Origin: a virus
Taxonomy: Duplodnaviria; Heunggongvirae; Uroviricota; Caudoviricetes
Direction: 5' to 3' (one strand)
Length of the DNA: 39,572 nucleotides
IMG/VR virus record: IMGVR_UViG_2531839178_000021
Location: 1 to 39,572 of that record
Part shown: one piece after another, positions 2,690 through 38,210 of the stretch
Position numbering within the stretch: position 1 is the first letter of the stretch
Layout of the letters: each line of letters opens with the position of its first letter
Notes under the pieces: generated by a model
Databases searched by the model: none
Told to the model about the DNA's origin: nothing
The model's input: the letters and a program-made list of their open reading frames with translations, nothing else
Made by a program: the position numbers and the translations under genes

Positions 2690-3084
2690 ATATCGTGCTA
2701 AGCCCCGGACAAGCTCATGAAAGCCAGTTCGCGCAACGACTTCTGGACGGGATTGGCGTTCAGCGTCAGAACGGCAGCATGAAACGCCGTGGACATGCGG
2801 TACTGGCTGATAAAGCGTATTCAGGGCGCGCATTGCGCAACGAGCTGAAAAATAACGGTATAAAGGCAGTAATCCCCCGAAAGTCAAATGAGAAAATGGC
2901 ATCGGATGGACGTGCACAGCTTGATCGTGATGCGTACTGCAATCGTAATGTCGTTGAACGGTGCTTTGGGCGGCTGAAAGAATATCGCCGCATCGCCACG
3001 CGTTACGACAAAACGGCGAGAAATTACCTGGCGATGGTGAAACTGGGCTGCATCCGACTCTTTTATCAACGCTTACGTAATTAA
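2569..3084 (+). CDS. IS transposase OrfB (DDE catalytic part), expressed as OrfAB fusion by -1 frameshift
   Basis: ...ADKAYSGRALRNELKNNGIKAVIPRKSNE...NRNVVERCFGRLKEYRRIATRYDKTARNYL, IS4/IS5-superfamily C-terminal signature. Confidence 0.8.
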   Translation: MCRRCSKKHPDIDGDNGLGRSRGGFGTKIHLATDGSGLPLNIVLSPGQAHESQFAQRLLDGIGVQRQNGSMKRRGHAVLADKAYSGRALRNELKNNGIKAVIPRKSNEKMASDGRAQLDRDAYCNRNVVERCFGRLKEYRRIATRYDKTARNYLAMVKLGCIRLFYQRLRN

Positions 3085-4381: not shown

Positions 4382-6653
4382 AGCCTCCGGGCGTTTTGTC
4401 CCTCCGTCAGCATTTGCTGCAGGCACCGGTAAGGCGTTTACCGGTGCTTATGCATGGAACGCGCCACGCGAGGCTGTCGGGCGCGAAAGACCCTTTACAC
4501 GTGACGAGATGCGTCAGGTGCAAGGTGTTTTATCCACGATTAACCGCCTGCCTTACTTTTTGCGCTCGCTGTTTACTTCACGCTATGACTACATCCGGCG
4601 CAATAAAAGCCCGGTACACGGGTTTTATTTCCTCACATCCACTTTTCAGCGTCGTTTATGGCCGCGCATTGAGCGTGTGAATCAGCGCCATGAAATGAAC
4701 ACCGACGCGTCGTTGCTGTTTCTGGCAGAGCGTGACCATTATGCGCGCCTGCCGGGAATGAATGACAAGGAGCTGAAAAGGTTTGCCGCCCGTATCTCAT
4801 CGCAGCTTTTCATGATGTATGAGGAACTCTGCGATGCCTGGGTGGATGCGCATGGCGAAAAAGAATCGCTGTTTACGGATGAGGCGCAGGCGCATCTGTA
4901 TGGTCATGTTGCTGGCGCTGCACGTGCTTTCAATATTTCCCCGCTTTACTGGAAAAAATACCGTAAAGGATAGATGACCACGAGGCAGGCATATTCTGCC
5001 ATTGCCCGTCTGTTTAACGATGAGTGGTGGACTCATCAGCTTAAAGGCCAGCGTATGCGCTGGCATGAGGCGTTATTGATAGCTGTCGGGGAGGTCAATA
5101 AAGACCGTTCTCCTTATGCCAGTAAACATGCCATTCGTGATGTGCGTGCGCGCCGTCAGGCAAATCTGGAGTTTCTTAAATCGTGTGACCTTGAAAACAG
5201 GGAAACCGGCGAACGCATCGACCTTATCAGTAAGGTGATGGGCAGTATTTCTAATCCTGAAATTCGCCGGATGGAGCTGATGAACACCATTGCCGGTATT
5301 GAGCGTTACGCCGCCGCAGAGGGTGATGTGGAGATGTTTATCACGCTGACCGCGCCGTCAAAGTATCACCCGACACGTCAGGTCGGAAAAGGCGAAAGTA
5401 AAACCGTCCAGCTTAATCACGGCTGGAATGATGAGGCATTTAATCCGAAGGATGCGCAGCGTTATCTCTGCCGTATCTGGAGCCTGATGCGCACGGCATT
5501 CAAGGATAATGATTTACAGGTCTACGGTTTGCGAGTCGTCGAGCCACACCACGACGGAACGCCGCACTGGCATATGATGCTTTTTTGTAATCCACGCCAG
5601 CGTAACCAGATTATCGAAATCATGCGTCGCTACGCGCTCAAAGAGGATGGCGACGAAAGAGGAGCTGCGCGAAACCGTTTTCAGGCAAAACACCTTAACC
5701 GGGGCGGTGCTGCGGGATATATCGCGAAATACATTTCAAAAAACATCGACGGCTATGCACTGGATGGTCAGCTCGATAACGATACCGGCAGGCCGCTGAA
5801 AGACACCGCCGCGGCTGTTACTGCATGGGCGTCAACGTGGCGCATCCCGCAATTTAAAACGGTTGGCCTGCCGACAATGGGGGCTTACCGTGAACTACGC
5901 AAATTGCCTCGCGGCGTCAGTATTGCTGATGAGTTTGACGAACGCGTCGAGGCTGCACGCGCTGCCGCAGACAGTGGTGATTTTGCGTTGTATATCAGCG
6001 CGCAGGGTGGGGCAAATGTTCCGCGCGATTGTCAGACTGTCAGGGTTGCCCGTAGTCCGTCGGATGAAGTTAACGAGTACGAGGAAGAAGTCGAGAGAGT
6101 GGTCGGCATTTACGCGCCGCATCTCGGCGCGCGTCATATTCATATCACCAGAACGACGGACTGGCGCATTGTTCCGAAAGTGCCGGTCGTTGAGCCTTTG
6201 ACTTTAAAAAGCGGCATCGCCGCGCCTCGGAGTCCTGTCAATAACTGTGGAAAGCTCACCGGTGGTGATACTTCGTTACCGGCTCCCACACCTTCTGAAC
6301 ACGCCGCAGCAGTGCTTAATCTGGTTGATGACGGTGTTATCGAATGGAATGACACGGAGGTCGTGAGGGCGCTCAGGGGCGCATTAAAACACGGCCTGAG
6401 AAGACCAAACCGTCAGCAAAGAAACGGAAGCCCGTTAAAACCGCATGAAATAGCGCCATCGGCCAGACTGACCCGGTCGGAAAGAATGCAAATTACCCGT
6501 ATCCGCGTTGACCTTGCTCAGAACGGTATCAGGCCGCAGCGATGGGAGCTTGAGGCGCTGGCGCGTGGTGCGACCGTAAATTACAACGGGAAAAAATTTA
6601 CGTATCCGGTCGCTGATGAGTGGAGTTGGTTTTATTGTTATTCAGAGCAATAA
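4371..6653 (+). pseudogene. A: Replication initiation protein A (rolling-circle nickase), 761 codons, interrupted by an in-frame TAG at 4971-4973
   Basis: ORFs 4329-4973 and 4974-6653 are in the same frame separated only by TAG; combined span from ATG 4371 matches the recalled 761-aa length of P2 gpA; HUH-like region ..PHWHMMLF.. and GYIAKYISK present. Confidence 0.8.
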
Positions 6654-21964: not shown

Positions 21965-22496
21965 GTGAGGAATAATGAGCACAAAATTCAGAACCGTTAT
22001 CACCACTGCCGGTGCAGCAAAGCTGGCAGCGGCAACCGCACCGGGAGGGCGGAAGGTCAACATTACCACGATGGCCGTCGGGGATGGCGGTGGTAAATTG
22101 CCTGTCCCGGATGCCGGACAGACCGGGCTTATCCATGAAGTCTGGCGACATGCGCTGAACAAAATCAGCCAGGACAAACGAAACAGTAATTATATTATCG
22201 CAGAGCTGGTTATTCCGCCGGAGGTGGGCGGTTTCTGGATGCGTGAGCTTGGCCTGTACGATGATGCGGGAACGTTAATTGCCGTGGCGAACATGGCCGA
22301 AAGTTATAAGCCAGCTCTTGCCGAAGGCTCAGGGCGTTCGCAGACCTGCCGTATGGTCATCATCGTCAGCAGTGTGGCCTCAGTGGAGCTGACCATTGAC
22401 ACCACAACGGTGATGGCGACGCAGGATTACGTTGATGACAAAATTGCAGAGCACGAACAGTCACGACGTCACCCGGACGCCTCGCTGACCGCAAAA

Positions 22497-22860
22497 GGTT
22501 TTACTCAGTTAAGCAGTGCGACCAACAGCATGTCTGAAACACTGGCTGCAACGCCGAGAGCGGTAAAGACCGCCTATGACCTTGCTAACGGGAAATATAC
22601 CGCGCAGGATGCCACCACCGCGCGAAAAGGCCTTGTTCAGCTCAGTAGTGCGACTAACAGCACGTCTGAAACGCTCGCCGCAACGCCGAAAGCGGTAAAG
22701 GCAGCATATGACCTTGCTAACGGGAAATACACTGCACAGGATGCCACAACAGCGCGAAAAGGCCTTGTTCAGCTCAGTAGCGCCACCAACAGTGATTCTG
22801 AAACGCAGGCTGCAACGCCAAAGGCGGTGAAGTCTGCCTATGACAATGCTGAAAAACGTC
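22497..22860 (+). repeat. Tandem 132-bp (44-codon) coding repeat, ~2.75 copies, inside tail fibre gene H
   Basis: units starting 22497, 22629, 22761: LSSATNS-SETLAATPKAVKAAYDLANGKYTAQDATTARKGLVQ. Confidence 0.8.
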
Positions 22861-22931
22861 TTCAGAAAGATCAGAACGGTGCGGATATCCCTGATAAAGA
22901 ACGCTTCCTGAGTAACATTAGGCTGTGTCCC

Positions 22932-23444
22932 TTAATTACGTAAGCGTTGATAAAAGAGTCGGATGCAGCCCAGTTTCACCATCGCCAGGTAATTTCTCGC
23001 CGTTTTGTCGTAACGCGTGGCGATGCGGCGATATTCTTTCAGCCGCCCAAAGCACCGTTCAACGACATTACGATTGCAGTACGCATCACGATCAAGCTGT
23101 GCACGTCCATCCGATGCCATTTTCTCATTTGACTTTCGGGGGATTACTGCCTTTATACCGTTATTTTTCAGCTCGTTGCGCAATGCGCGCCCTGAATACG
23201 CTTTATCAGCCAGTACCGCATGTCCACGGCGTTTCATGCTGCCGTTCTGACGCTGAACGCCAATCCCGTCCAGAAGTCGTTGCGCGAACTGGCTTTCATG
23301 AGCTTGTCCGGGGCTTAGCACGATATTTAACGGGAGGCCACTTCCGTCTGTTGCCAGATGGATTTTGGTGCCAAAACCGCCGCGAGAGCGACCCAGCCCA
23401 TTATCTCCGTCGATATCGGGATGTTTTTTGAGCACCGGCGGCAC
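22932..23444 (-). CDS. IS transposase OrfB (copy 2)
   Basis: same protein as 2569-3084 apart from the N-terminal residues at the A-run. Confidence 0.75.
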   Translation of the reverse strand: MPPVLKKHPDIDGDNGLGRSRGGFGTKIHLATDGSGLPLNIVLSPGQAHESQFAQRLLDGIGVQRQNGSMKRRGHAVLADKAYSGRALRNELKNNGIKAVIPRKSNEKMASDGRAQLDRDAYCNRNVVERCFGRLKEYRRIATRYDKTARNYLAMVKLGCIRLFYQRLRN

Positions 23445-23775
23445 ATTTCAGCGCCCGGATATTACTGCCATCCAGCGCGGTGGCAGACCAGTCAATAAAG
23501 CCGTTTGCATCAAGTAGCGAAAGCAACCTGTTGAAAATAATATTAATCACGCCTGACTTTGACCATCGGTTAAAGCGGTTATAAACAGTTTTCCATGACC
23601 CATATCGTTCGGGTAAATCGCGCCATGGTGCACCGGAACATAACACCCAGAACATGCCATTGATGATTTTACGGTGCTCAGCCCATGGGCGTCCGGCCCG
23701 TGGTGTGGCGGGTTCAGGAGGTAACAGGGGCTTGATGATGGTCCATGCCTCATCGGGAAGGTCGTAGCGAGCCAT
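23401..23775 (-). CDS. IS transposase OrfA (copy 2); with A6 the OrfB frame is +1 rather than -1
   Basis: MARYDLPDEAWTIIKPLLPP...AQKTSRYRRR stop. Confidence 0.7.
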   Translation of the reverse strand: MARYDLPDEAWTIIKPLLPPEPATPRAGRPWAEHRKIINGMFWVLCSGAPWRDLPERYGSWKTVYNRFNRWSKSGVINIIFNRLLSLLDANGFIDWSATALDGSNIRALKCAAGAQKTSRYRRR

Positions 23776-24682
23776 AGTTCAATATGTTGTGTAAACAGAC
23801 AGTTACTATAGCTCAGATGATTAAGGGACACAGCCTAGTGTTTTTTATGTTGAAGCCAGAGCTTTCCCTGTACAAATTCTTGCAGAGGAAGGGCTAACGG
23901 TTATTGTTCCGACAGAGGATTATGTCGTCGGTCAAACGACATATAAGTGGGGGGCAACTAATCCCGCTACAGAAAGCACGAACGCACAGGCTATTCTGGA
24001 TTTTAAAAATGGACGTGGTTATTACTGTTCACATCCATTTATTTCCAGCCTTTCAGGAAATGCTGCAACAGCAACGAAGTTAGCGAACGCAAGAAATATT
24101 AATGGTGTCAGATTTGATGGCTCTGCCGATATAAATATTAATACACTGGTATCCAGAAACCGTGTTACTGCATTAGGTGGGAGCGTAAAGGGGACACCAG
24201 GTATTCAGATGTATGAGGCATACAACAATGGCTACCCAACAGCCTATGGTAATGTGCTTCATCTCACTGGCGTAACCGCAGTAGGAGAGGGTGAGTTACT
24301 TATTGGTTGGAGTGGAACCAGCGGTGCTCATGCTCCGGCATATATTCGTTCCCGACGAGATACCACAGATGCTAACTGGTCTGGATGGGCGCAACTATAT
24401 ACAACTGCTCATAAACCCTCAGCGGGAGATGTTGGTGCATACACCAAAACTGAGTCAGATTCACGTTATGTGAGAGACATGCGGCTGGGCGGTGCATCTA
24501 CATATAAACCAGCAAATAATGGTACTACATGGACGCATCAGGCTCCGTCAGGTTGCGTATATACCGGCATTATTGTTCAGGATACCGGCTCAAACTCTGC
24601 CGATAACATTGGTGGCGTATATTACAGACCGGTGCAGAAATACATTAACGGGACATGGTATAACGTGGTGCAGGTATAATTT

Positions 24683-25210
24683 ATGCAGCATTTAAAAAAT
24701 ATTACGGCGGGTAATCCAAAAACGGTTGAACAATATCAATTGACAAAGGACTTTGATGTTGTCTGGTTTTTTTCAGAAGATGGTAAGAACTGGTACGAAG
24801 AACAAAAGTATTTTGCTGATGACACGATAAAAATAGCGTACGACAAAGATAATATCATCCACTATGTGGAAAAGGATGTGACAGCTATCAGACCGGATGG
24901 ATTAAGTGTTGTTGAAGTGGCGGATATTACTGCTAACCGACGGGCGGACATTTCAGGGAACTGGATGTTTAAGGACGGCAAAGTGATTAAACGCGTTTAT
25001 ACGGCAGAGGAATTACAGCAGCAGGCAGAAATTCGGAAAGCCAGACTTCTTGCAGATGCTGAATCCGTGATTTTGCCGCTGGAGCGCGCGGTCAGACTGA
25101 ACATGGCAACAGATGAGGAGCGTAGCCGACTGGAATCATGGGAACGCTACAGCGTTCTGGTCAGTCGTGTGGATCCTGCAAATCCTGAATGGCCGGAAAT
25201 GCCGCAATAA
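24683..25210 (+). CDS. G: Tail fibre assembly chaperone G
   Basis: 175-aa [44 protein letters not shown] immediately after H. Confidence 0.85.
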
Positions 25211-25259
25211 GTTGTATTAGCTTACATATCTATGGCACAGAGTAAAGCCTAATCTGACA

Positions 25260-25298
25260 GTCCGCTCTGTGCCAGGAGCAGACATTGCCAACGTTATG
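25260..25298 (+). repeat. ~39-bp direct repeat, copy A (partner at 27932-27970)
   Basis: gtccgctctgtgccaggagcagacattgccaacgttatga versus gttcgctttgtgccaggagcggacgttgccagcattgag, ~85 percent identity. Confidence 0.7.
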
Positions 25299-25677
25299 AC
25301 CCTCGATTACATCAAAGAGCCCTATAGCCGAAACCTGCACCATAGCCATCTCTGTAGAATTCGTCCTAGGGGCTTTTAACAGACCTAGTTGTATGGATCG
25401 GAAGGAAATATTAAAGCTCAAGGCGTCAGTCCAGTGCTGTCCTGTTTGCTTACCACACGAAAGAGTGCTGCTTGTACCTGCTAACTAATGGTATGCGGAG
25501 TGAGGGGGGCGGGTAGAACCAAAAGCACTTACTACGTGTGGCGCTCTCCTGGAAGAGGAGACGTCGAAGTGATAACGCTAACAACAGTCTTACTGGTGAT
25601 GCAAATAATGCTAGCTGGTCTGGTTGCCATCAAGCAACTGACCGGACGCCCGTAAGGGATGGAGGAACTTGATTAAA

Positions 25678-25707
25678 GGCAGGGGGGTTACCTCCCCTGC
25701 CTTTTTC
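25678..25707 (+). terminator. Strong rho-independent terminator
   Basis: GGCAGGGG-ggttacct-CCCCTGCC followed by TTTTT; lies ~470 nt downstream of G stop with no ORF of 60 aa or more between. Confidence 0.75.
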
Positions 25708-25769
25708 GTTTCTGCGCAAGTTAGCTCTGTTATTATAATCCTTACTCACACTGTAAGGACATAGTTCAA

Positions 25770-26033
25770 ATGACTGAATGGCTTAATGCACATTTTGGTG
25801 CAGACGCAGCTACCTATCTTAGCTTATTAGTCGGCGTACTGGCACTGTTTGGTATTGGGGGCGGTGTTACATATAGAATCAGACAGCAAAACAACATAAA
25901 ACAGAAGGCAAAGAAAACCGAGGGTGATGTGAACCAGGCCGGGCGGGATATTAATCAGACCACCAACGTTTACCACACATCCAATGAATCTACTGAGGAC
26001 CCTGTAAAAAAAAGCAAGATGAACATGATCTGA
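25770..26033 (+). CDS. Membrane-anchored hypothetical protein, N-terminal segment (single TM helix)
   Basis: TATAAT at 25734-25739; MTEWLNAHFGADAATYLSLLVGVLALFGIGGGV; ORF ends just after an A8 run (26006-26013) where the next ORF's frame opens. Confidence 0.55.
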   Translation: MTEWLNAHFGADAATYLSLLVGVLALFGIGGGVTYRIRQQNNIKQKAKKTEGDVNQAGRDINQTTNVYHTSNESTEDPVKKSKMNMI

Positions 26034-26056
26034 AGATAATCGACCAGATCCTTGAA

Positions 26057-26452
26057 TTGCTGCCTTATGAGGATACTACTCAATGGGTTGAGCAGAGCTA
26101 CCTGAGCGGTATACGGCAAGATGTTTGCTTAAACATTGAAAAAGCTGAAAAATTTAGCGGTGAAAAGTATCGGTTATTCAATACTGAAGTGAATGGTGCG
26201 AAAGACGCTTTTTTGGACGCTATGACCGCATACGTAGATAGTACGCTACCATTTATGAGTGTTGATTACCCGAACAGAAAGCCAGTGATGCTAAGCCTTC
26301 CCCATGACTGGAAGAGTAAGAGTGTTGAATCGGAGGCAAACTTCCGCTTTCATCAGCAAAATGTGCGTGAAACATCGGGGGGGATGATTGCGCGCTATGA
26401 GGATTTTGTCAGGACATTTAAGGCTCATGGATTCATAAGCGATAAACTGTAA
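26057..26452 (+). CDS. Hypothetical protein segment lacking an ATG start; probably the C-terminal part of one ~227-aa gene 25770-26452 broken by a 1-nt deletion
   Basis: frame open from 25997; ORF-track start is TTG; frame offset from 25770 is of deletion type. Confidence 0.5.
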   Translation: MLPYEDTTQWVEQSYLSGIRQDVCLNIEKAEKFSGEKYRLFNTEVNGAKDAFLDAMTAYVDSTLPFMSVDYPNRKPVMLSLPHDWKSKSVESEANFRFHQQNVRETSGGMIARYEDFVRTFKAHGFISDKL

Positions 26453-26545
26453 AGGCGCAGTGGGTCAGCGAACACCGCAACGACAGAACCGCGTAAGCGG
26501 TAAAATCAGCTTGTTAACTGGCGAGTTTATAGCCGTCCCTCCGGG

Positions 26546-27846
26546 CTGAGGGATCCCCACAAAATTACTGCTAATAAACCAGTACCATATTTCGGTAGGT
26601 TCTGGACAGATGGTTTAGAACTGTGCTCAGTACTGTTCGTCTTAAAATAAGTGGCGAGTGTCGAAGAACATTCTTCGCTAACGTCAGATATGAGATAACC
26701 CGCCGGGATTTAATGCTGTTAGCCTGATATTTCAGGTGTAACCCTTTATTTTCAGCGTGATAACCGAGTAACCACATTACGATAGTGCTCAACGTTGCCA
26801 GCAGACTCAGAACCAGAATTCTTCCTGTTGAACGACTTTTGCTGGCCCGAAGACCAAATCCGAAGCGCCCGTTCTTTTCATCACGAAAGTTTTGCTCTAT
26901 CTGCATTCGCCGACTGTATAACTTGATGATTTCTCGCGCTCTGAAGTCATTTGTACTGCTGAAGATCAACCAGGCTTCTTTTGCTGATTTGCTCTGTTCT
27001 TTGTCTGTTTTGTTTAAACCACTCTGACCTTTCGAACGTTTCTTTTTTCGCCCTTTTGCCGATTTCTTATAGGTGTAAAAATGCCCCCGGATGCTTTTTT
27101 TCCTTTCTTTAACCAGCCTTCCAGCCCCCATATATTCCGGTGTTTTACATTCAGGGCTATCCGACACTTTTAACCATCTTTCAGGCGCGTTATCGAGGCA
27201 ATACTGAACGTTATTTCTGATCCGACCAATAAAATCCCAGCCCAGAGAAGTAATATGGTGAAACCATGCGCTCTGAAATCCAGCATCCGTGACAATAATA
27301 ACCCTGGCATCGGGGGGCAGGGATTGAGCAAGGGAATCAAGGAAATCATGTTGTATCAATGGATTATTTTGTTTTTCAGAAGGAACAACCTTACTCAATA
27401 ACGGAATGGAACGCCCGTCACACAGAAGGCTGGCACGAAGAACATGATGCTCCTGGGAGGGATAGCCACTCCAGTCTACGGCTATTACACATAAAGATAA
27501 CTGCCGTGTCAGCATTGAAGTGATATTCCTGAAAATCATTGGAATATCGCGATGGAGCGCCTCATTACCCATGAGGCGATCAATACGTTTGCTCTTATTC
27601 TTAACTTGTGCATTACCCGGGAAAAAACGTCCGATACTGGTCAGCGTCAGAGATGCTCCGTTGATTAACGCCACTGTGGCATCCATCAGGGCATTTTGTC
27701 GGTACTGATGAAATGGTGCTAAGGCATCCCGGAAGAAATTCTGACATACTTTATGAACAGGCATAGCAGTGATCTCATTGAATTGTTGGCACAAATCAGT
27801 AGATCACATAATGCTATGTCTGTCTCGTTTTCTGGGAATTCCTCAG
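26546..27846 (-). mobile_element. IS10-like (IS4-family) insertion sequence, ~1.3 kb, with 9-bp target-site duplication CCCTCCGGG
   Basis: ends CTGAGGGATCCCC (26546-) and its reverse complement (-27846); identical 9-mers at 26537-26545 and 27847-27855. Confidence 0.8.
26571..27764 (-). CDS. IS10-like transposase (~397 aa)
   Basis: KRIDRLMGN, VDWS, VLRAS, TDAGFQSAWF, SLGW, SKGRKKKRS, SAKEAW, IKLYSRRMQIEQNFRD, FGLRAS: motifs shared with the IS10 transposase. Confidence 0.8.
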   Translation of the reverse strand: MPVHKVCQNFFRDALAPFHQYRQNALMDATVALINGASLTLTSIGRFFPGNAQVKNKSKRIDRLMGNEALHRDIPMIFRNITSMLTRQLSLCVIAVDWSGYPSQEHHVLRASLLCDGRSIPLLSKVVPSEKQNNPLIQHDFLDSLAQSLPPDARVIIVTDAGFQSAWFHHITSLGWDFIGRIRNNVQYCLDNAPERWLKVSDSPECKTPEYMGAGRLVKERKKSIRGHFYTYKKSAKGRKKKRSKGQSGLNKTDKEQSKSAKEAWLIFSSTNDFRAREIIKLYSRRMQIEQNFRDEKNGRFGFGLRASKSRSTGRILVLSLLATLSTIVMWLLGYHAENKGLHLKYQANSIKSRRVISYLTLAKNVLRHSPLILRRTVLSTVLNHLSRTYRNMVLVY

Positions 27847-27931
27847 CCCTCCGGGGCGGCTTTTTTATGACTATAATCGACAGAATCACCTGAACGTCCA
27901 GGTGGGTTTCCCTGACAGGACGTCAAGGAAT

Positions 27932-27970
27932 GTTCGCTTTGTGCCAGGAGCGGACGTTGCCAGCATTGAG
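27932..27970 (+). repeat. ~39-bp direct repeat, copy B (partner at 25260-25298)
   Basis: see copy A. Confidence 0.7.
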
Positions 27971-28116: not shown

Positions 28117-28902
28117 ATGTACGATTATAGTTTTTTACTTACTCCATCTACAGGATTTGTTAAAGGATTATGTGGAGTTTGGTCGAATGATTTCTCTATA
28201 AATGATGATTCTGACTCTGATTTAGGGCAAACAGATATTCATTTACTTTCATCTCCTCATTTGAATATCATATCCGACCCAAATGAATTGGCTTCCAAGT
28301 TAAAAGGTTTGTTGATGCTCATGAACGGCGCACTTAGCGTTCTTTATGGTTTTGAAAGATATCAATCTTTTGGTCCTCTTTCTATTTCTGGAAGTGAAGG
28401 CATTAATTACTCGGAAATATGCGGCTTTAAATCAATGGATGTAACTCAGGTAAACCCCTTTAATTTCCATGACATACAGCAACCACACCCTCGCGCTGAT
28501 AATTTTTCACGATTAATTAATTTATCATCTAAACATGAATCCTTACGTGTTGTTTTAGGTATGTGTGCCTTAGGTTATGATTGGGTTAATCTTTATCGTT
28601 TGTGGGAAACAATTAGAGAATATGTATATGATAAATATGTGAAAGGTATACTAAATTTCCCCGACGCTTATAAAGGCAAGAAATATCAGAGAGATAAAGT
28701 AATTAGCATGGCTTTTAATATTGATGAAAAGGAAATCAGCAGATTCACGGGCACTGCTAATAGCTTTGAACTGTTAGGGTATCTTGCGAGACATGGAAAG
28801 GGAAGTTCCGGAGGGATATTAAAAAATCCGATGTCAAGAGTTGACGCAAGCATTTTCGTACACAAAGCAACTTACAAATATTGTAAGTTATTTTTGATGT
28901 AA
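28117..28902 (+). CDS. Hypothetical cargo protein (261 aa), unknown function
   Basis: low-GC ORF with AAGAGGGA RBS; no recognisable motif. Confidence 0.6.
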   Translation: MYDYSFLLTPSTGFVKGLCGVWSNDFSINDDSDSDLGQTDIHLLSSPHLNIISDPNELASKLKGLLMLMNGALSVLYGFERYQSFGPLSISGSEGINYSEICGFKSMDVTQVNPFNFHDIQQPHPRADNFSRLINLSSKHESLRVVLGMCALGYDWVNLYRLWETIREYVYDKYVKGILNFPDAYKGKKYQRDKVISMAFNIDEKEISRFTGTANSFELLGYLARHGKGSSGGILKNPMSRVDASIFVHKATYKYCKLFLM

Positions 28903-29063: not shown

Positions 29064-29816
29064 TCATTTAGGAATAATAGAATGCAATTCGTGACTCACC
29101 TGGATTTCATAGTGTTTCAATAGTTCTCCGATGTTAATTCCTACTACCTTACGAACTGCGCCGAGGGAGAAGTTAAGCTCCTCAATGCCCGGCCGATCTG
29201 GCGTTGAATTCATATAGTGTCGGCACGCACGGACAATTGACTCGACGATCAACGATAGCGGAGACTCAGGTGCAATCTCGGAGCGAATCGCCGTAAGAGA
29301 GAGTCGGAGCTCCTTCAAAGAATCCGAGACTCGTGCTGGATCCTCTTGAGCATATGGCAGATAAAGAGAACTCTTGTCTTCCAATAAATGGATCAACCGC
29401 AGAGCAATTTTCTCGTCTGGGCGATGCGATAGAAATTGAAACATTAGCCTCTTTCCTCCCTCCAAGCACTCCTTCATTAGTGATTCGTGGTCACGTTTCC
29501 ATTTTCGCAAATACTCGGCGGGGTAGCCCATACCGCCATTCTTATCAACTAAATCAGCACAAGCTCCGCACAACCATATAGCATTTTTTATGCTCTTCCG
29601 CTCTGTTTCTGACTGAGACATGTCATAGCGCGGTCCGCCAGGGCTCGCCGCGCAGATATGCGCCGCCTCACCCGTCTTGATAGAAAGATTTTCCGCCAAT
29701 TGATCCGGGCCGATTGTTACCCTATGACAAGAGGGATTGCTACAAATATATGTAGCGCGCTCTGCTACCTTACCTACAACGCTTGGAGGAAAGTTGTGCC
29801 TATTTGTCTTGGTCAT
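29064..29816 (-). CDS. Hypothetical protein with N-terminal Cys/His cluster resembling an HNH/His-Me-finger nuclease motif
   Basis: YICSNPSCH ... AAHICAASPGG ... NAIWLCGACADLVD; mid-GC; the IS630 copy lies ~70 bp upstream of its start. Confidence 0.45.
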   Translation of the reverse strand: MTKTNRHNFPPSVVGKVAERATYICSNPSCHRVTIGPDQLAENLSIKTGEAAHICAASPGGPRYDMSQSETERKSIKNAIWLCGACADLVDKNGGMGYPAEYLRKWKRDHESLMKECLEGGKRLMFQFLSHRPDEKIALRLIHLLEDKSSLYLPYAQEDPARVSDSLKELRLSLTAIRSEIAPESPLSLIVESIVRACRHYMNSTPDRPGIEELNFSLGAVRKVVGINIGELLKHYEIQVSHELHSIIPK

Positions 29817-29887: not shown

Positions 29888-31041
29888 AATAGCTGCGCTT
29901 AATACCGCTACACTTTTGCCAGTCCATGTTTGCCTCCGGGGAATGGGCTGACGGTTTCCATAAAATGGCGAACTTTTTTCAACAGTTGCCACATTGAGCG
30001 GCACTGATGATTACGCGTTATTGTGTCGTGAAGTGCCTGCCATAGCCGTTCAACATGATTCACCCATGGCGAGTAAACCGGCTGATAAATGACCCTGAAC
30101 TTCGGGTTCTCCTTCAGCCAGCTCTGTGTTTCCCGGCTTTTGTGGATAATGTAGTTGTCCACGATCAGCGTGATGGTTTTCGCCCGACGCTATGTCGCTT
30201 TAAGCCGCTTCAGCAGGCTGATGAACAGCGCCGAACTTTTTGCTGTTGCCGCCCACATAGCTGACTTTACCTGTCCCGCTGTGCAGCGCTCCGGCCAGAT
30301 AATATTTTTCATTCTGTCCCGGCGTGACCACCCGTTTTTGCTGTCCGCGCAGTTGCCAGTCCGCACCGATTTTGGGATGAAGATGGATATCCACTTCATC
30401 TTCATAAAAGACCGGATGCTCTGCGCTGCATTCGTCCAGTGCTTTATGGATTGCTGCCATCTTTTCATCTTTATGCGGGTCACGGATACGCAGAGTTGGC
30501 GCAGCCCTTCGCCACACAATCCCCGCAGACGGCAACCAGCGGCGAACGGTTCCGGCATTTAACTGGCAACCGGTTATCTCATTGATTTTTATTGCCAGCA
30601 GTTCTGTACTCCAGCGTGAACGCTGGTAGCCAAAGTCGCCGGGAGAATGTTTTACCAGCTCACGTAACAGTGTGCAGATATGCTCAAACGGCCAGCGACG
30701 GGCACGCCCGGCAGGTAATGATTTCAGTCCCTCAACACCCGACTGCGTGAACCAGTTAATCCAGCGTCCAACAGAGGAACGGGCGCAGCAGAGCGTTCTG
30801 GCAACGTCGCTGACACGGTCGCCCCGGTGCAGCATCAGCATGGCAGTCAGTCTGCGGGCATAATTTTTATCGTGTGTTTTATGGATGGCTTTCTGCATCA
30901 GGCGTCGTTCGTCACGGGAAATTGGTGCTATGATCGGCATTGCTCAGTCCGGTTGGTGATTTGTTTTGATTTGGCGATTGATCAGATCGCACAATCCGGG
31001 CTAAGTTCCCTCAAAATGATCTACTATTCCGCGCAGCTATT
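29888..31041 (-). mobile_element. IS630-family insertion sequence (1154 bp), TA duplication within a CTAG target
   Basis: terminal repeats aatagctgcgc (29888-) and gcgcagctatt (-31041); TA at 29886-29887 and 31042-31043 flanked by C and G. Confidence 0.85.
29908..30940 (-). pseudogene. IS630 transposase, split into two ORFs (30200-30940 and 29908-30162) by a frame break
   Basis: N-part MPIIAPISRDERRLMQKAIHKTHDKNYARRL.. and C-part ..NYIIHKSRETQSWLKENPKFRVIYQPVYSPWVNHVERLW together approximate the recalled single 343-aa IS630 transposase. Confidence 0.75.
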
Positions 31042-31214
31042 TAGGTCTGACCAGCAACCTATTGATCAAAAAACCAAGATATTAGCTAAAAAAATCAGCA
31101 TACTTGAGACCAAGCTCAATGTCCGCTCCTCGCTCAAAGCAGACTGTCAGATTTGATAGCATTTGGGCTATGTAAATTGTCAGGCGGAAAATGAGTGAGT
31201 ACAAATCAGGACAG

Positions 31215-38039: not shown

Positions 38040-38066
38040 AAAAAATAAGCCCGTGTAAGGGAGATT
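38040..38066. other. attR: attR: 27-bp P2-type attachment core at the prophage/host junction
   Basis: AAAAAATAAGCCCGTGTAAGGGAGATT matches the recalled P2 att core; lies between ogr and the host gene. Confidence 0.7.
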
Positions 38067-38210
38067 ACACAGGCTAAGGAGGTGGTTCCTGGTACAGCTA
38101 GCATTTTATGGGTTATGTTTTTCAGCGAAACGGATGATAACCTTAATAAATGCAGCTGTATGTGATCGGTTTCTAAGAATTTTCCATCCGGGAAAAATAA
38201 TCGAAATTAA

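Follow-up and report, generated by a model that had tools for sequence, protein, structure and literature searches.

The window analysed here is the whole 39,572-nucleotide (nt) stretch of IMG/VR virus record IMGVR_UViG_2531839178_000021, a P2-like prophage, and the region under study (25211-25769) begins right after gene G and opens the Z/fun cargo slot, which is the interval from G to FI. A first-pass annotation had offered this region as some 560 bp of structured and possibly non-coding RNA. Our reading, held at a probability of about 0.6, is that it is a mosaic of four separate parts: the left border repeat of the slot, a spacer here called B, an orphan and probably silent cassette for a putative toxin of the tisB/istR-1 type in 25431-25716, and the promoter region of the next gene in 25717-25769. 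In Escherichia coli K-12, tisB encodes an SOS-induced, membrane-depolarising toxin of 29 amino acids (aa), and the small RNA (sRNA) IstR-1 blocks the ribosome standby site. As had been stated, the + strand contains no open reading frame (ORF) of at least 60 aa between the G stop and 25770, the longest being 55 aa (25488-25655).

The structured element and its plasmid relatives

The element has its relatives on plasmids. A hidden Markov model (HMM) of the plasmid family matches 25434-25716 by nhmmer with E = 1.5e-67, using only positions 281-562 of the 562 in the model, and blastn against plasmids returns 30-31 records with 68-77% identity to 25434-25717. The hosts are Erwinia, Pantoea, Serratia, Mixta, Klebsiella, Providencia, Proteus (Rts1) and others, and a pattern scan added homologs from 11 genome contigs and 3 viral contigs. 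Nearly all of the plasmid records leave the element unannotated, those of the Rts1 type listing just a hypothetical protein and psiA under the match. The plasmid copies examined sit near partition, replication, psiA or antirestriction genes. The family alignment exhibits conserved blocks, a GTG with GGAG ahead of it, and a terminator.

Folding bears out part of the 560 bp as structured, namely 25425-25712, with z = -3.4 and 0/200 shuffles as stable; the border segment 25211-25295 is marginal (z = -1.4), and 25288-25432, the part occupied by spacer B, is no better than shuffles (z = 0.15 for the + strand, 1.25 for the - strand). The idea of one RNA spanning the whole region gives way to a structured element confined to 25431-25716. 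RNAalifold on 10 sequences finds 74 pairs with 94.9% of cells paired and 17 pairs changed on both sides, a number that 0/500 shuffles reach and for which slid controls give 2-4. Several helices have many invariant G-U pairs, which points to an RNA of the + strand. The terminator noticed at the outset is real and strong: a 13-bp stem, 8 of whose pairs are G-C, closes a 4-nt loop, and TTTTTCGTTT comes after the stem. It had been suggested that compensatory changes be sought by aligning the region across P2-like phages; these align over the first ~76 nt only, and the compensatory changes came from the family alignment instead. A long-range fold-back helix joining the beginning of the element to the last codons of the ORF (helix 1) is predicted with 92% of cells paired and zero double changes. 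In full-length plasmid mRNAs its 5′ arm pairs locally upstream instead, with compensatory changes, and the fold-back is a possible alternative structure.

Within this RNA there is a coding signature. The 12 distinct homologous ORFs are each exactly 31 codons from the GTG and all are open, while frame +1 has 3-8 stops, and the variable columns fall 22 at codon position 1, 10 at position 2, and 20 at position 3. All of the family peptides are hydrophobic, with grand average of hydropathicity (GRAVY) values of 1.2-1.6, and end in KQLTG(R/S)x. In the window an in-frame deletion of 9 nt has shortened the ORF to 28 codons, as compared with the 31-codon forms of Serratia and the plasmids. Ahead of the start, the hairpin TCTCCT-GGAAG-AGGAGA of the first-pass annotation is a real and conserved feature that would hide the Shine-Dalgarno (SD) sequence, and it is predicted, with compensatory variants, in almost every homolog whose ORF is intact; the Rts1 type, whose default fold differs, is the exception. 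An equivalent SD hairpin is predicted for K-12 tisB. The window accordingly has a small hydrophobic ORF with a hairpin-hidden SD behind a long structured leader. What had been proposed as an RNA gene is thus a conserved, structured + strand RNA closed by a terminator, and is the mRNA of a hydrophobic ORF of 28-31 codons, too short for the 60-aa limit used at first, and not a non-coding RNA. The 31-aa family peptides are absent from a collection of 15 billion proteins, some older annotations include the window ORF in a 39-aa form, labelled just "putative membrane protein" or hypothetical, and no mention of the KQLTGRP motif was found in the searchable literature.

The complete plasmid modules indicate what the window copy is a part of. 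They are ~550 bp long, with a toxin promoter TTGCGG-17-TATACT on the + strand giving a ~360-nt mRNA with a ~200-nt leader, and a TATACT or TATAAT box is found at every plasmid locus, 196-226 nt ahead of the GTG. The leader contains a 22-nt box ~100 nt upstream of the start and the SD-hiding hairpin, and the GTG 31-codon ORF and the terminator follow. In the plasmid loci a second copy of the box is found upstream of the mRNA, the other copy being ~97-100 nt before the GTG, and the two agree at 20-22/22 positions in 11/11 plasmid-type loci, against a shuffled maximum of 16-18, with three co-varying sequence types. These counts of box repeats and contiguous pairing against shuffles replaced RNAduplex, which was uninformative on whole regions, its duplexes running over everything. 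On the - strand of plasmid locus L004, the upstream box lies just past a promoter TTGACG-17-TAATAT and ~90 nt ahead of a terminator, so we take the upstream box to be the 5′ end of a divergent sRNA of ~95 nt. That 5′ end is perfectly complementary to the leader box over 22 contiguous pairs, and the sRNA also has a covarying central hairpin and a terminator. Each of the 11 plasmid-type relatives shows this pairing of the leader with a divergent sRNA. The stretch that separates the two divergent promoters, of toxin and sRNA, holds a palindrome TTGACGatccCGTCAA (L004 4862-4877 and equivalents) that overlaps the sRNA -35; TTGACGatccCGTCAA may serve some regulator as an operator where tisB has its LexA box.

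The sRNA is the component that links the plasmid family to K-12. A covariance model (R1), built from nine plasmid sRNAs only, finds K-12 IstR with 30.3 bits and E = 3.7e-5 at 1117-1203, where IstR-1 is annotated at 1119-1191, and reciprocally the Rfam istR model (RF01400) aligns full length to the predicted plasmid sRNA with 17.2 bits. The plasmid HMM gives by nhmmer two weak collinear matches, to istR and to the tisB leader, with E ~0.06 each, and the best spurious match in the window, which is 16-fold larger, has E = 1.6. The pairing site precedes the start by ~100 nt in the plasmid family and by ~120 nt in K-12 tisB, where the first 20 nt of IstR-1 pair with it. Since the 5′ end of the sRNA pairs with a co-varying leader box, and since a model made from plasmid sRNAs finds IstR-1, the architecture matches that of tisB/istR-1. 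From these alignments the plasmid sRNA is probably homologous to IstR-1, and we infer by analogy that the family would work as tisB/istR-1 does.

The orphan copy and how it may be read

The window copy keeps the box, the SD hairpin, the ORF (3 codons short, in frame) and the terminator. An unrelated spacer has replaced the sRNA gene, the two promoters and ~85 nt at the 5′ end of the leader. Its box is single, no second copy being found in the window, and there is no divergent sRNA gene to pair with it. Model R1, run on the window, the E. coli islands and Serratia, finds the antisense of the box itself only, and in each of the 32 carrier E. coli genomes the box occurs once. A search of 5,426 E. 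coli genomes gives no homolog of the sRNA/promoter region, and 25150-25580 has no sigma-70-like + strand promoter. The box is still one that a plasmid sRNA could recognise, as the L004 sRNA pairs with it at 22/22 and the Erwinia plasmid sRNA would pair with it perfectly. K-12 IstR-1 was considered as a stand-in antitoxin and rejected, its pairing with the window mRNA being at background level. Insertion sequence (IS) elements lie inside the element in E24377A, RS571 and viral contig L024, and locus L018 has a further, larger in-frame deletion in the ORF.

Several carriers differ at the box. In 21/32 carrier genomes the 40-nt segment around it is just 92.5% identical to the window, and strain 144 (L002 6212-6241) has a box with two C-to-A changes (GTGCTGATTGTACCTGATAACT) and then a 1-nt deletion. 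This divergence fits a drift of the box once there is no sRNA. A plasmid of Erwinia sp. HDF1-3R (L011) keeps an IstR-like sRNA (2933-3023 on the - strand, 48.9 bits), its toxin having been lost through a GTG-to-GTA change and an early stop, a route of decay opposite to that of the window, with the toxin dead and the sRNA kept.

Spacer B, which takes the place of the missing parts, always accompanies the toxin element and is 99-100% identical in Serratia. No sigma-70-like promoter and no terminator were found in it, and blastn and nhmmer find no DNA homolog in phages or plasmids. We considered that it might be degraded coding sequence, and dropped this: the 63-aa ORF on its - strand is without a Pfam match, and tblastn gives E values of at least 0.2, with the best matches lying where the ORF and the border motif overlap. 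A resemblance by eye to the plasmid toxin promoter region was unsupported by nhmmer and was dropped as well.

By analogy with tisB/istR-1, the sRNA of a complete module would block the ribosome standby site and trigger cleavage of the mRNA, and upon loss of the plasmid the unstable sRNA would be lost and the membrane toxin translated. In the window the toxin gene would be transcriptionally silent or translationally closed, a passenger relic whose terminator would still insulate the downstream gene, which has its own promoter. That promoter has the TATAAT box reported at first, with a weak -35 and an alternative extended -10, and the promoter segment is 100% identical in the Serratia loci.

Several results weigh against our reading. 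The 17.2 bits of the plasmid sRNA are far below the Rfam istR gathering score of 45. Similarity to the TisB peptide is not significant against shuffles, the window peptide having p = 0.38 and the family as a whole 0.008-0.4, and the family peptides have no Pfam or NCBIfam match at E up to 10. K-12 tisB has a LexA box, CTG-N10-CAG, which the window lacks and which does not occur consistently in the plasmid loci. Because the peptide similarity is not significant, no profile matches and there is no LexA box, the toxin is not assigned to the TisB family. The argument for silence is only that consensus promoters are missing, and a weak or non-sigma-70 promoter could express the toxin; moreover, no terminator lies between G and 25675, so that read-through from the P2 late operon could express it too. 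Lastly, the ORF, SD hairpin and box are intact and the E. coli and Serratia copies are 97-100% identical, which makes decay and selection indistinguishable.

These points lead to the rival that the toxin is functional and conditionally expressed, by late-operon read-through or from an unrecognised promoter in spacer B, as a membrane-depolarising effector, for example in lysis or abortive infection, perhaps together with the 227-aa protein encoded downstream. We consider this unlikely. It agrees with the intact ORF, SD hairpin and terminator, with the unterminated stretch after G, with the element always being ahead of the 227-aa gene in E. coli and Serratia, and with the defence-like genes in the cargo slot, and the leader, having lost ~85 nt at its 5′ end, might resemble that of tisB once 5′ processing has activated it. 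It has to contend with the failure to detect a promoter, with the expectation that an expressed toxin without antitoxin should be counter-selected, with the 3-codon deletion in the window and the larger one in L018, with the IS insertions in E24377A, RS571 and L024, with the unrelated neighbours on plasmids, and with the tail-fibre gene upstream being broken by an IS in the window, which makes late read-through doubtful. We find it improbable that the antitoxin-less tisB-like gene is a working weapon of phage or island, which, having neither sRNA nor promoter nor the inhibitory 5′ part of its leader, would be translated only under strong foreign or late-phage read-through and would then depolarise the cell for abortive infection or lysis timing, or that the preserved box makes the host depend on the IstR-like sRNA of incoming plasmids or act as a sponge for it.

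It is very unlikely that the toxin-antitoxin pair is complete with its antitoxin replaced, spacer B or a nearby segment encoding a new antisense or trans-acting RNA. The constant company of spacer B and its identity in Serratia are what one would expect of this, and the 9-nt deletion has made a promoter-like site TTGATG-17-CATTAT on the - strand (25633 to 25605), from which an RNA would be antisense to the start region; but that site is absent from the Serratia and plasmid versions, spacer B has on neither strand a structure better than shuffles, nor a promoter or terminator, and its complementarity to the mRNA is at background, at best 13-15/22. The view that the region is a non-coding RNA gene or a structured 3′ untranslated region, possibly the RNA partner of the adjacent membrane protein, accounts for the strong conserved structure and terminator and for the lack of an annotated gene at the site in any RefSeq record, and we nevertheless give it little chance, as it leaves unexplained the conserved start codon and SD, the exact 31-codon length, the pattern at codon position 2, the hydrophobic peptides, and the "putative membrane protein" of older annotations. 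The partnership with the adjacent gene is unsupported because the plasmid copies are self-contained toxin/sRNA modules with unrelated neighbours. The covariance-model scan that had been proposed gives, with Rfam 15, no family at gathering score in 25211-25769 and, by E-value in 25100-25900, chance-level terminator matches only; gathering-score and E-value scans of the window and four plasmid loci find nothing at threshold apart from CyaR (38043-38128), the sole gathering-score match in the window. There remains the notion of an Frpo/ssi-like single-stranded-DNA promoter, carried from plasmid leading regions into island and prophage, to which we assign a chance close to negligible. Several plasmid homologs do lie near psiA, antirestriction and DNA methylase genes, a leading-region context, but others are beside rep/par genes or on non-mobilisable plasmids, the invariant G-U pairs in conserved helices fit an RNA of one strand and not DNA hairpins, and the element has multiple helices where Frpo/ssi is a single long imperfect DNA hairpin with -35/-10 elements found in leading regions only. 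All of the conserved blocks are accounted for by the small ORF together with an sRNA gene that has a promoter and a terminator of its own.

The cargo slot and other features of the prophage

The positions of the parts are given in Table 1. In BLAST against phages, the first ~76 nt after G are 85-97% identical across P2-like phages and the match stops there, and GenBank AJ512679 labels those ~76 nt "left inverted repeat" of the Z region. The inverted repeat first described with 9-bp arms is real and one base longer, at 10 nt. The pair GGCACAGAG/CTCTGTGCC, which had been counted as a part of the RNA gene, belongs to this left border repeat. As expected for the P2 Z/fun slot, the repeat is conserved right after the G stop and has an inverted copy before FI. 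The core motif is common to P2-like phages, CP4-like islands and one Pantoea locus, and it is within the core that the partner of similarity switches.

From ~25237-25261 on, the sequence and following genes are 98-99% identical to 32 E. coli chromosomes, and in 5/5 E. coli loci inspected the module lies in CP4-like islands with a GTPase gene on one side and the 227-aa hypothetical gene on the other. The Serratia chromosome copies are 97-100% identical to the window module, indels aside. The similarity to E. coli strain 144 and two Serratia chromosomes ends exactly at the internal core copy, and this, with the switch between P2 and island inside the left core, makes 25258-27959 one core-bounded cargo module, consisting of spacer B, the toxin element and the gene of the 227-aa membrane protein, that is also found in E. 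coli CP4-like islands and Serratia chromosomes. In common with the P2 Z/fun (TO) slot of AJ512679-80, the window has the G-to-FI position, the 85-97% likeness of 25211-25287 to the annotated repeat, and the inverted copy at the right end; it differs in that this cargo is rare there, with 1 complete E. coli genome and 3 IMG/VR contigs in the collections searched, and in that the same bordered cargo occurs in CP4-like islands too.

The hairpin core of ~24-30 nt, GTCCGCTYTGTGCCAGGAGCRGAC, appears as a cargo-border mark ~50 nt past the G stop in most of the viral contigs examined, and also in CP4-like islands. Some viral contigs have 3-4 direct core copies spaced by 0.8-2.6 kb, an arrangement that resembles a gene-cassette array. 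The entire bordered cargo of the window is also found in an island of E. coli AH65 (L001; cores at 6024, 7388 and 9422).

Table 1. Positions of the parts of the region and of the features related to them.
Feature	Position	Strand	Remarks
Gene G, tail-fibre assembly (Caudo_TAP)	24683-25210		stop codon 25208-25210
Conserved left border repeat, P2 Z/fun slot	25211-25287		includes 10-nt inverted repeat and 30-nt hairpin core
10-nt inverted repeat	25233-25242 / 25265-25274	n/a	arms TGGCACAGAG / CTCTGTGCCA; 22-nt spacer; 100% complementary; belongs to "left inverted repeat"
Core border motif CAGTCCGCTCTGTGCCAGGAGCAGACATTG	25258-25287	+	hairpin GTCCGCTC 25260-67 / GAGCAGAC 25276-83
63-aa TTG ORF	25230-25421	-	
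Spacer B	25288-25430		travels with module; no detectable structure, promoter or outside homolog
Putative TisB-like type I toxin mRNA element	25431-25716	+	5′-truncated, no own promoter; from HMM, homologs, structure, covariation
5′ arm, predicted long-range fold-back helix	25438-25446	+	pairs with 25640-25648 (last ORF codons)
22-nt target box GTGCTGCTTGTACCTGCTAACT for IstR-1-like sRNA	25465-25486	+	104 nt upstream of start codon
SD-sequestering hairpin	25545-25561	+	TCTCCT (25545-50) GGAAG AGGAGA (25556-61)
Small ORF, GTG start	25569-25655	+	28 codons and stop; (M)ITLTTVLLVMQIMLAGLVAIKQLTGRP
3′ arm GACCGGACG, predicted fold-back helix	25640-25648	+	
Intrinsic terminator of toxin mRNA	25675-25709	+	stem 25675-25704, then T run; family-conserved; two pairs changed both sides (helices 11-12)
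Promoter and 5′ leader of next gene (ATG 25770)	25728-25769	+	-10 TATAAT 25734-39, or extended -10 TGtTATTAT
Direct internal core copy	27931-27959	+	divides cargo module 1 from module 2
Inverted core copy	31118-31148	-	right cargo border ahead of FI
Tail sheath gene FI	start 31337		
Core copies elsewhere	L043 7966/8767/9724; L045 2245/3168/4067/5287; L046 2133/3445/6050		

The gene after the toxin element, at 25770-26452, is a frameshifted copy of the gene for the 227-aa hypothetical protein WP_000141343.1. Its A run at 26006-26013 is A8 in the window and A9 in seven other loci, splitting the gene into ORFs of 87 and 131 aa; the gene may be a true pseudogene or subject to phase variation, or the sequence may be wrong at the homopolymer. 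The 227-aa protein has no Pfam and no PADLOC match. An IS4-family element with a 407-aa DDE_Tnp_1 transposase on the - strand occupies 26546-27846 of the cargo; it is absent from most of the compared loci (E. coli islands, Serratia, L025, L026), L024 appears to share the insertion, and the flanks in IS4-free loci overlap by 9 bp, consistent with target duplication. A further insertion relative to the AH65 island and L025, at 29888-31041, is IS630-like with a split transposase, having helix-turn-helix (HTH) domains and a DDE_3 fragment within 30200-30940 (-) and a DDE_3 fragment within 29908-30162 (-). In cargo module 2, the 250-aa protein of 29064-29816 (-) matches the PADLOC model PDC-M68A, a candidate defence protein, with E = 7e-24, as well as HNH-endonuclease effector models, and the neighbouring 261-aa ORF at 28117-28902 has no matches.

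Upstream of G, an IS5-family element at ~22925-23850 (DUF4096 and DDE_Tnp_1 ORFs, - strand) follows the tail-fibre ORF 21975-22943 (Phage_tail_fib and Phage_fiber_2), and the ORF at 24209-24679 has no Pfam match. If that ORF is the remainder of tail-fibre gene H, then H is interrupted, the prophage is probably defective, and late read-through into the cargo is doubtful. The CyaR sRNA gene (- strand, 100.7 bits in Rfam) adjoins the prophage end.

Relation to known type I systems

The type I systems with divergent sRNAs, tisB/istR-1 among them, had been described from chromosomes. Fozo et al. 2010 (PMC2887945) describe tisB-istR-1 without reported homology to plasmid sequences, and divergent-sRNA loci as known only from E. 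coli and close relatives. Here we find a family that shares the architecture, has an sRNA of detectable homology, and is complete on Erwinia, Pantoea, Serratia, Mixta, Klebsiella and Providencia/Rts1 plasmids, beside partition and leading-region genes, which points to a plasmid-addiction relative, or ancestor, of tisB/istR-1. For the window, a "possible non-coding RNA" becomes a concrete annotation, that of an unannotated small-protein gene with RNA control elements of known type. The three co-varying types of box and sRNA are a natural experiment in antitoxin specificity, and the orphan copy illustrates how a cassette is dismantled upon entry into phage and island cargo.

With zorO/orzO, shoB/ohsC and dinQ/agrB of E. 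coli the family has in common the divergent-sRNA layout, the long structured 5′ leader and a peptide length of ~26-30 aa. The plasmid sRNA matches Rfam OrzO-P weakly, at 15.2 bits, but no sequence-level relation was detected, and comparisons with the peptides of these systems are not significant. The hok/sok, srnB and pndA systems are likewise plasmid-borne near maintenance or leading-region genes and have a predicted 5′-3′ fold-back of the mRNA, whereas their antisense RNA overlaps the toxin in cis and here it is divergent and would act in trans. Hok has ~50 aa, with mok as its leader ORF. These systems have no sequence similarity to the family, for which Rfam also gives no Sok match.

The closest comparison is with tisB/istR-1 itself. 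The family differs from it in that its peptide ends in the distinct KQLTGRP motif, starts with GTG and does not match the TisB profile, and in that its complete copies are plasmid-borne where tisB is chromosomal; the window copy differs further in being entirely without istR and the istR promoter. The likeness is in the layout of the whole locus. The sRNA and toxin genes are divergent; the sRNA has ~20-22 nt of recognition sequence at its 5′ end, then a central hairpin whose top GCGGUUACCAGCCGC is identical, and a terminator; and the target lies ~100 nt upstream of the start, with the SD in a hairpin, a hydrophobic ORF of 28-31 codons, and a terminator soon after the stop. The two leaders also have the block GAAACnGGTGGTGCnGTC in common.

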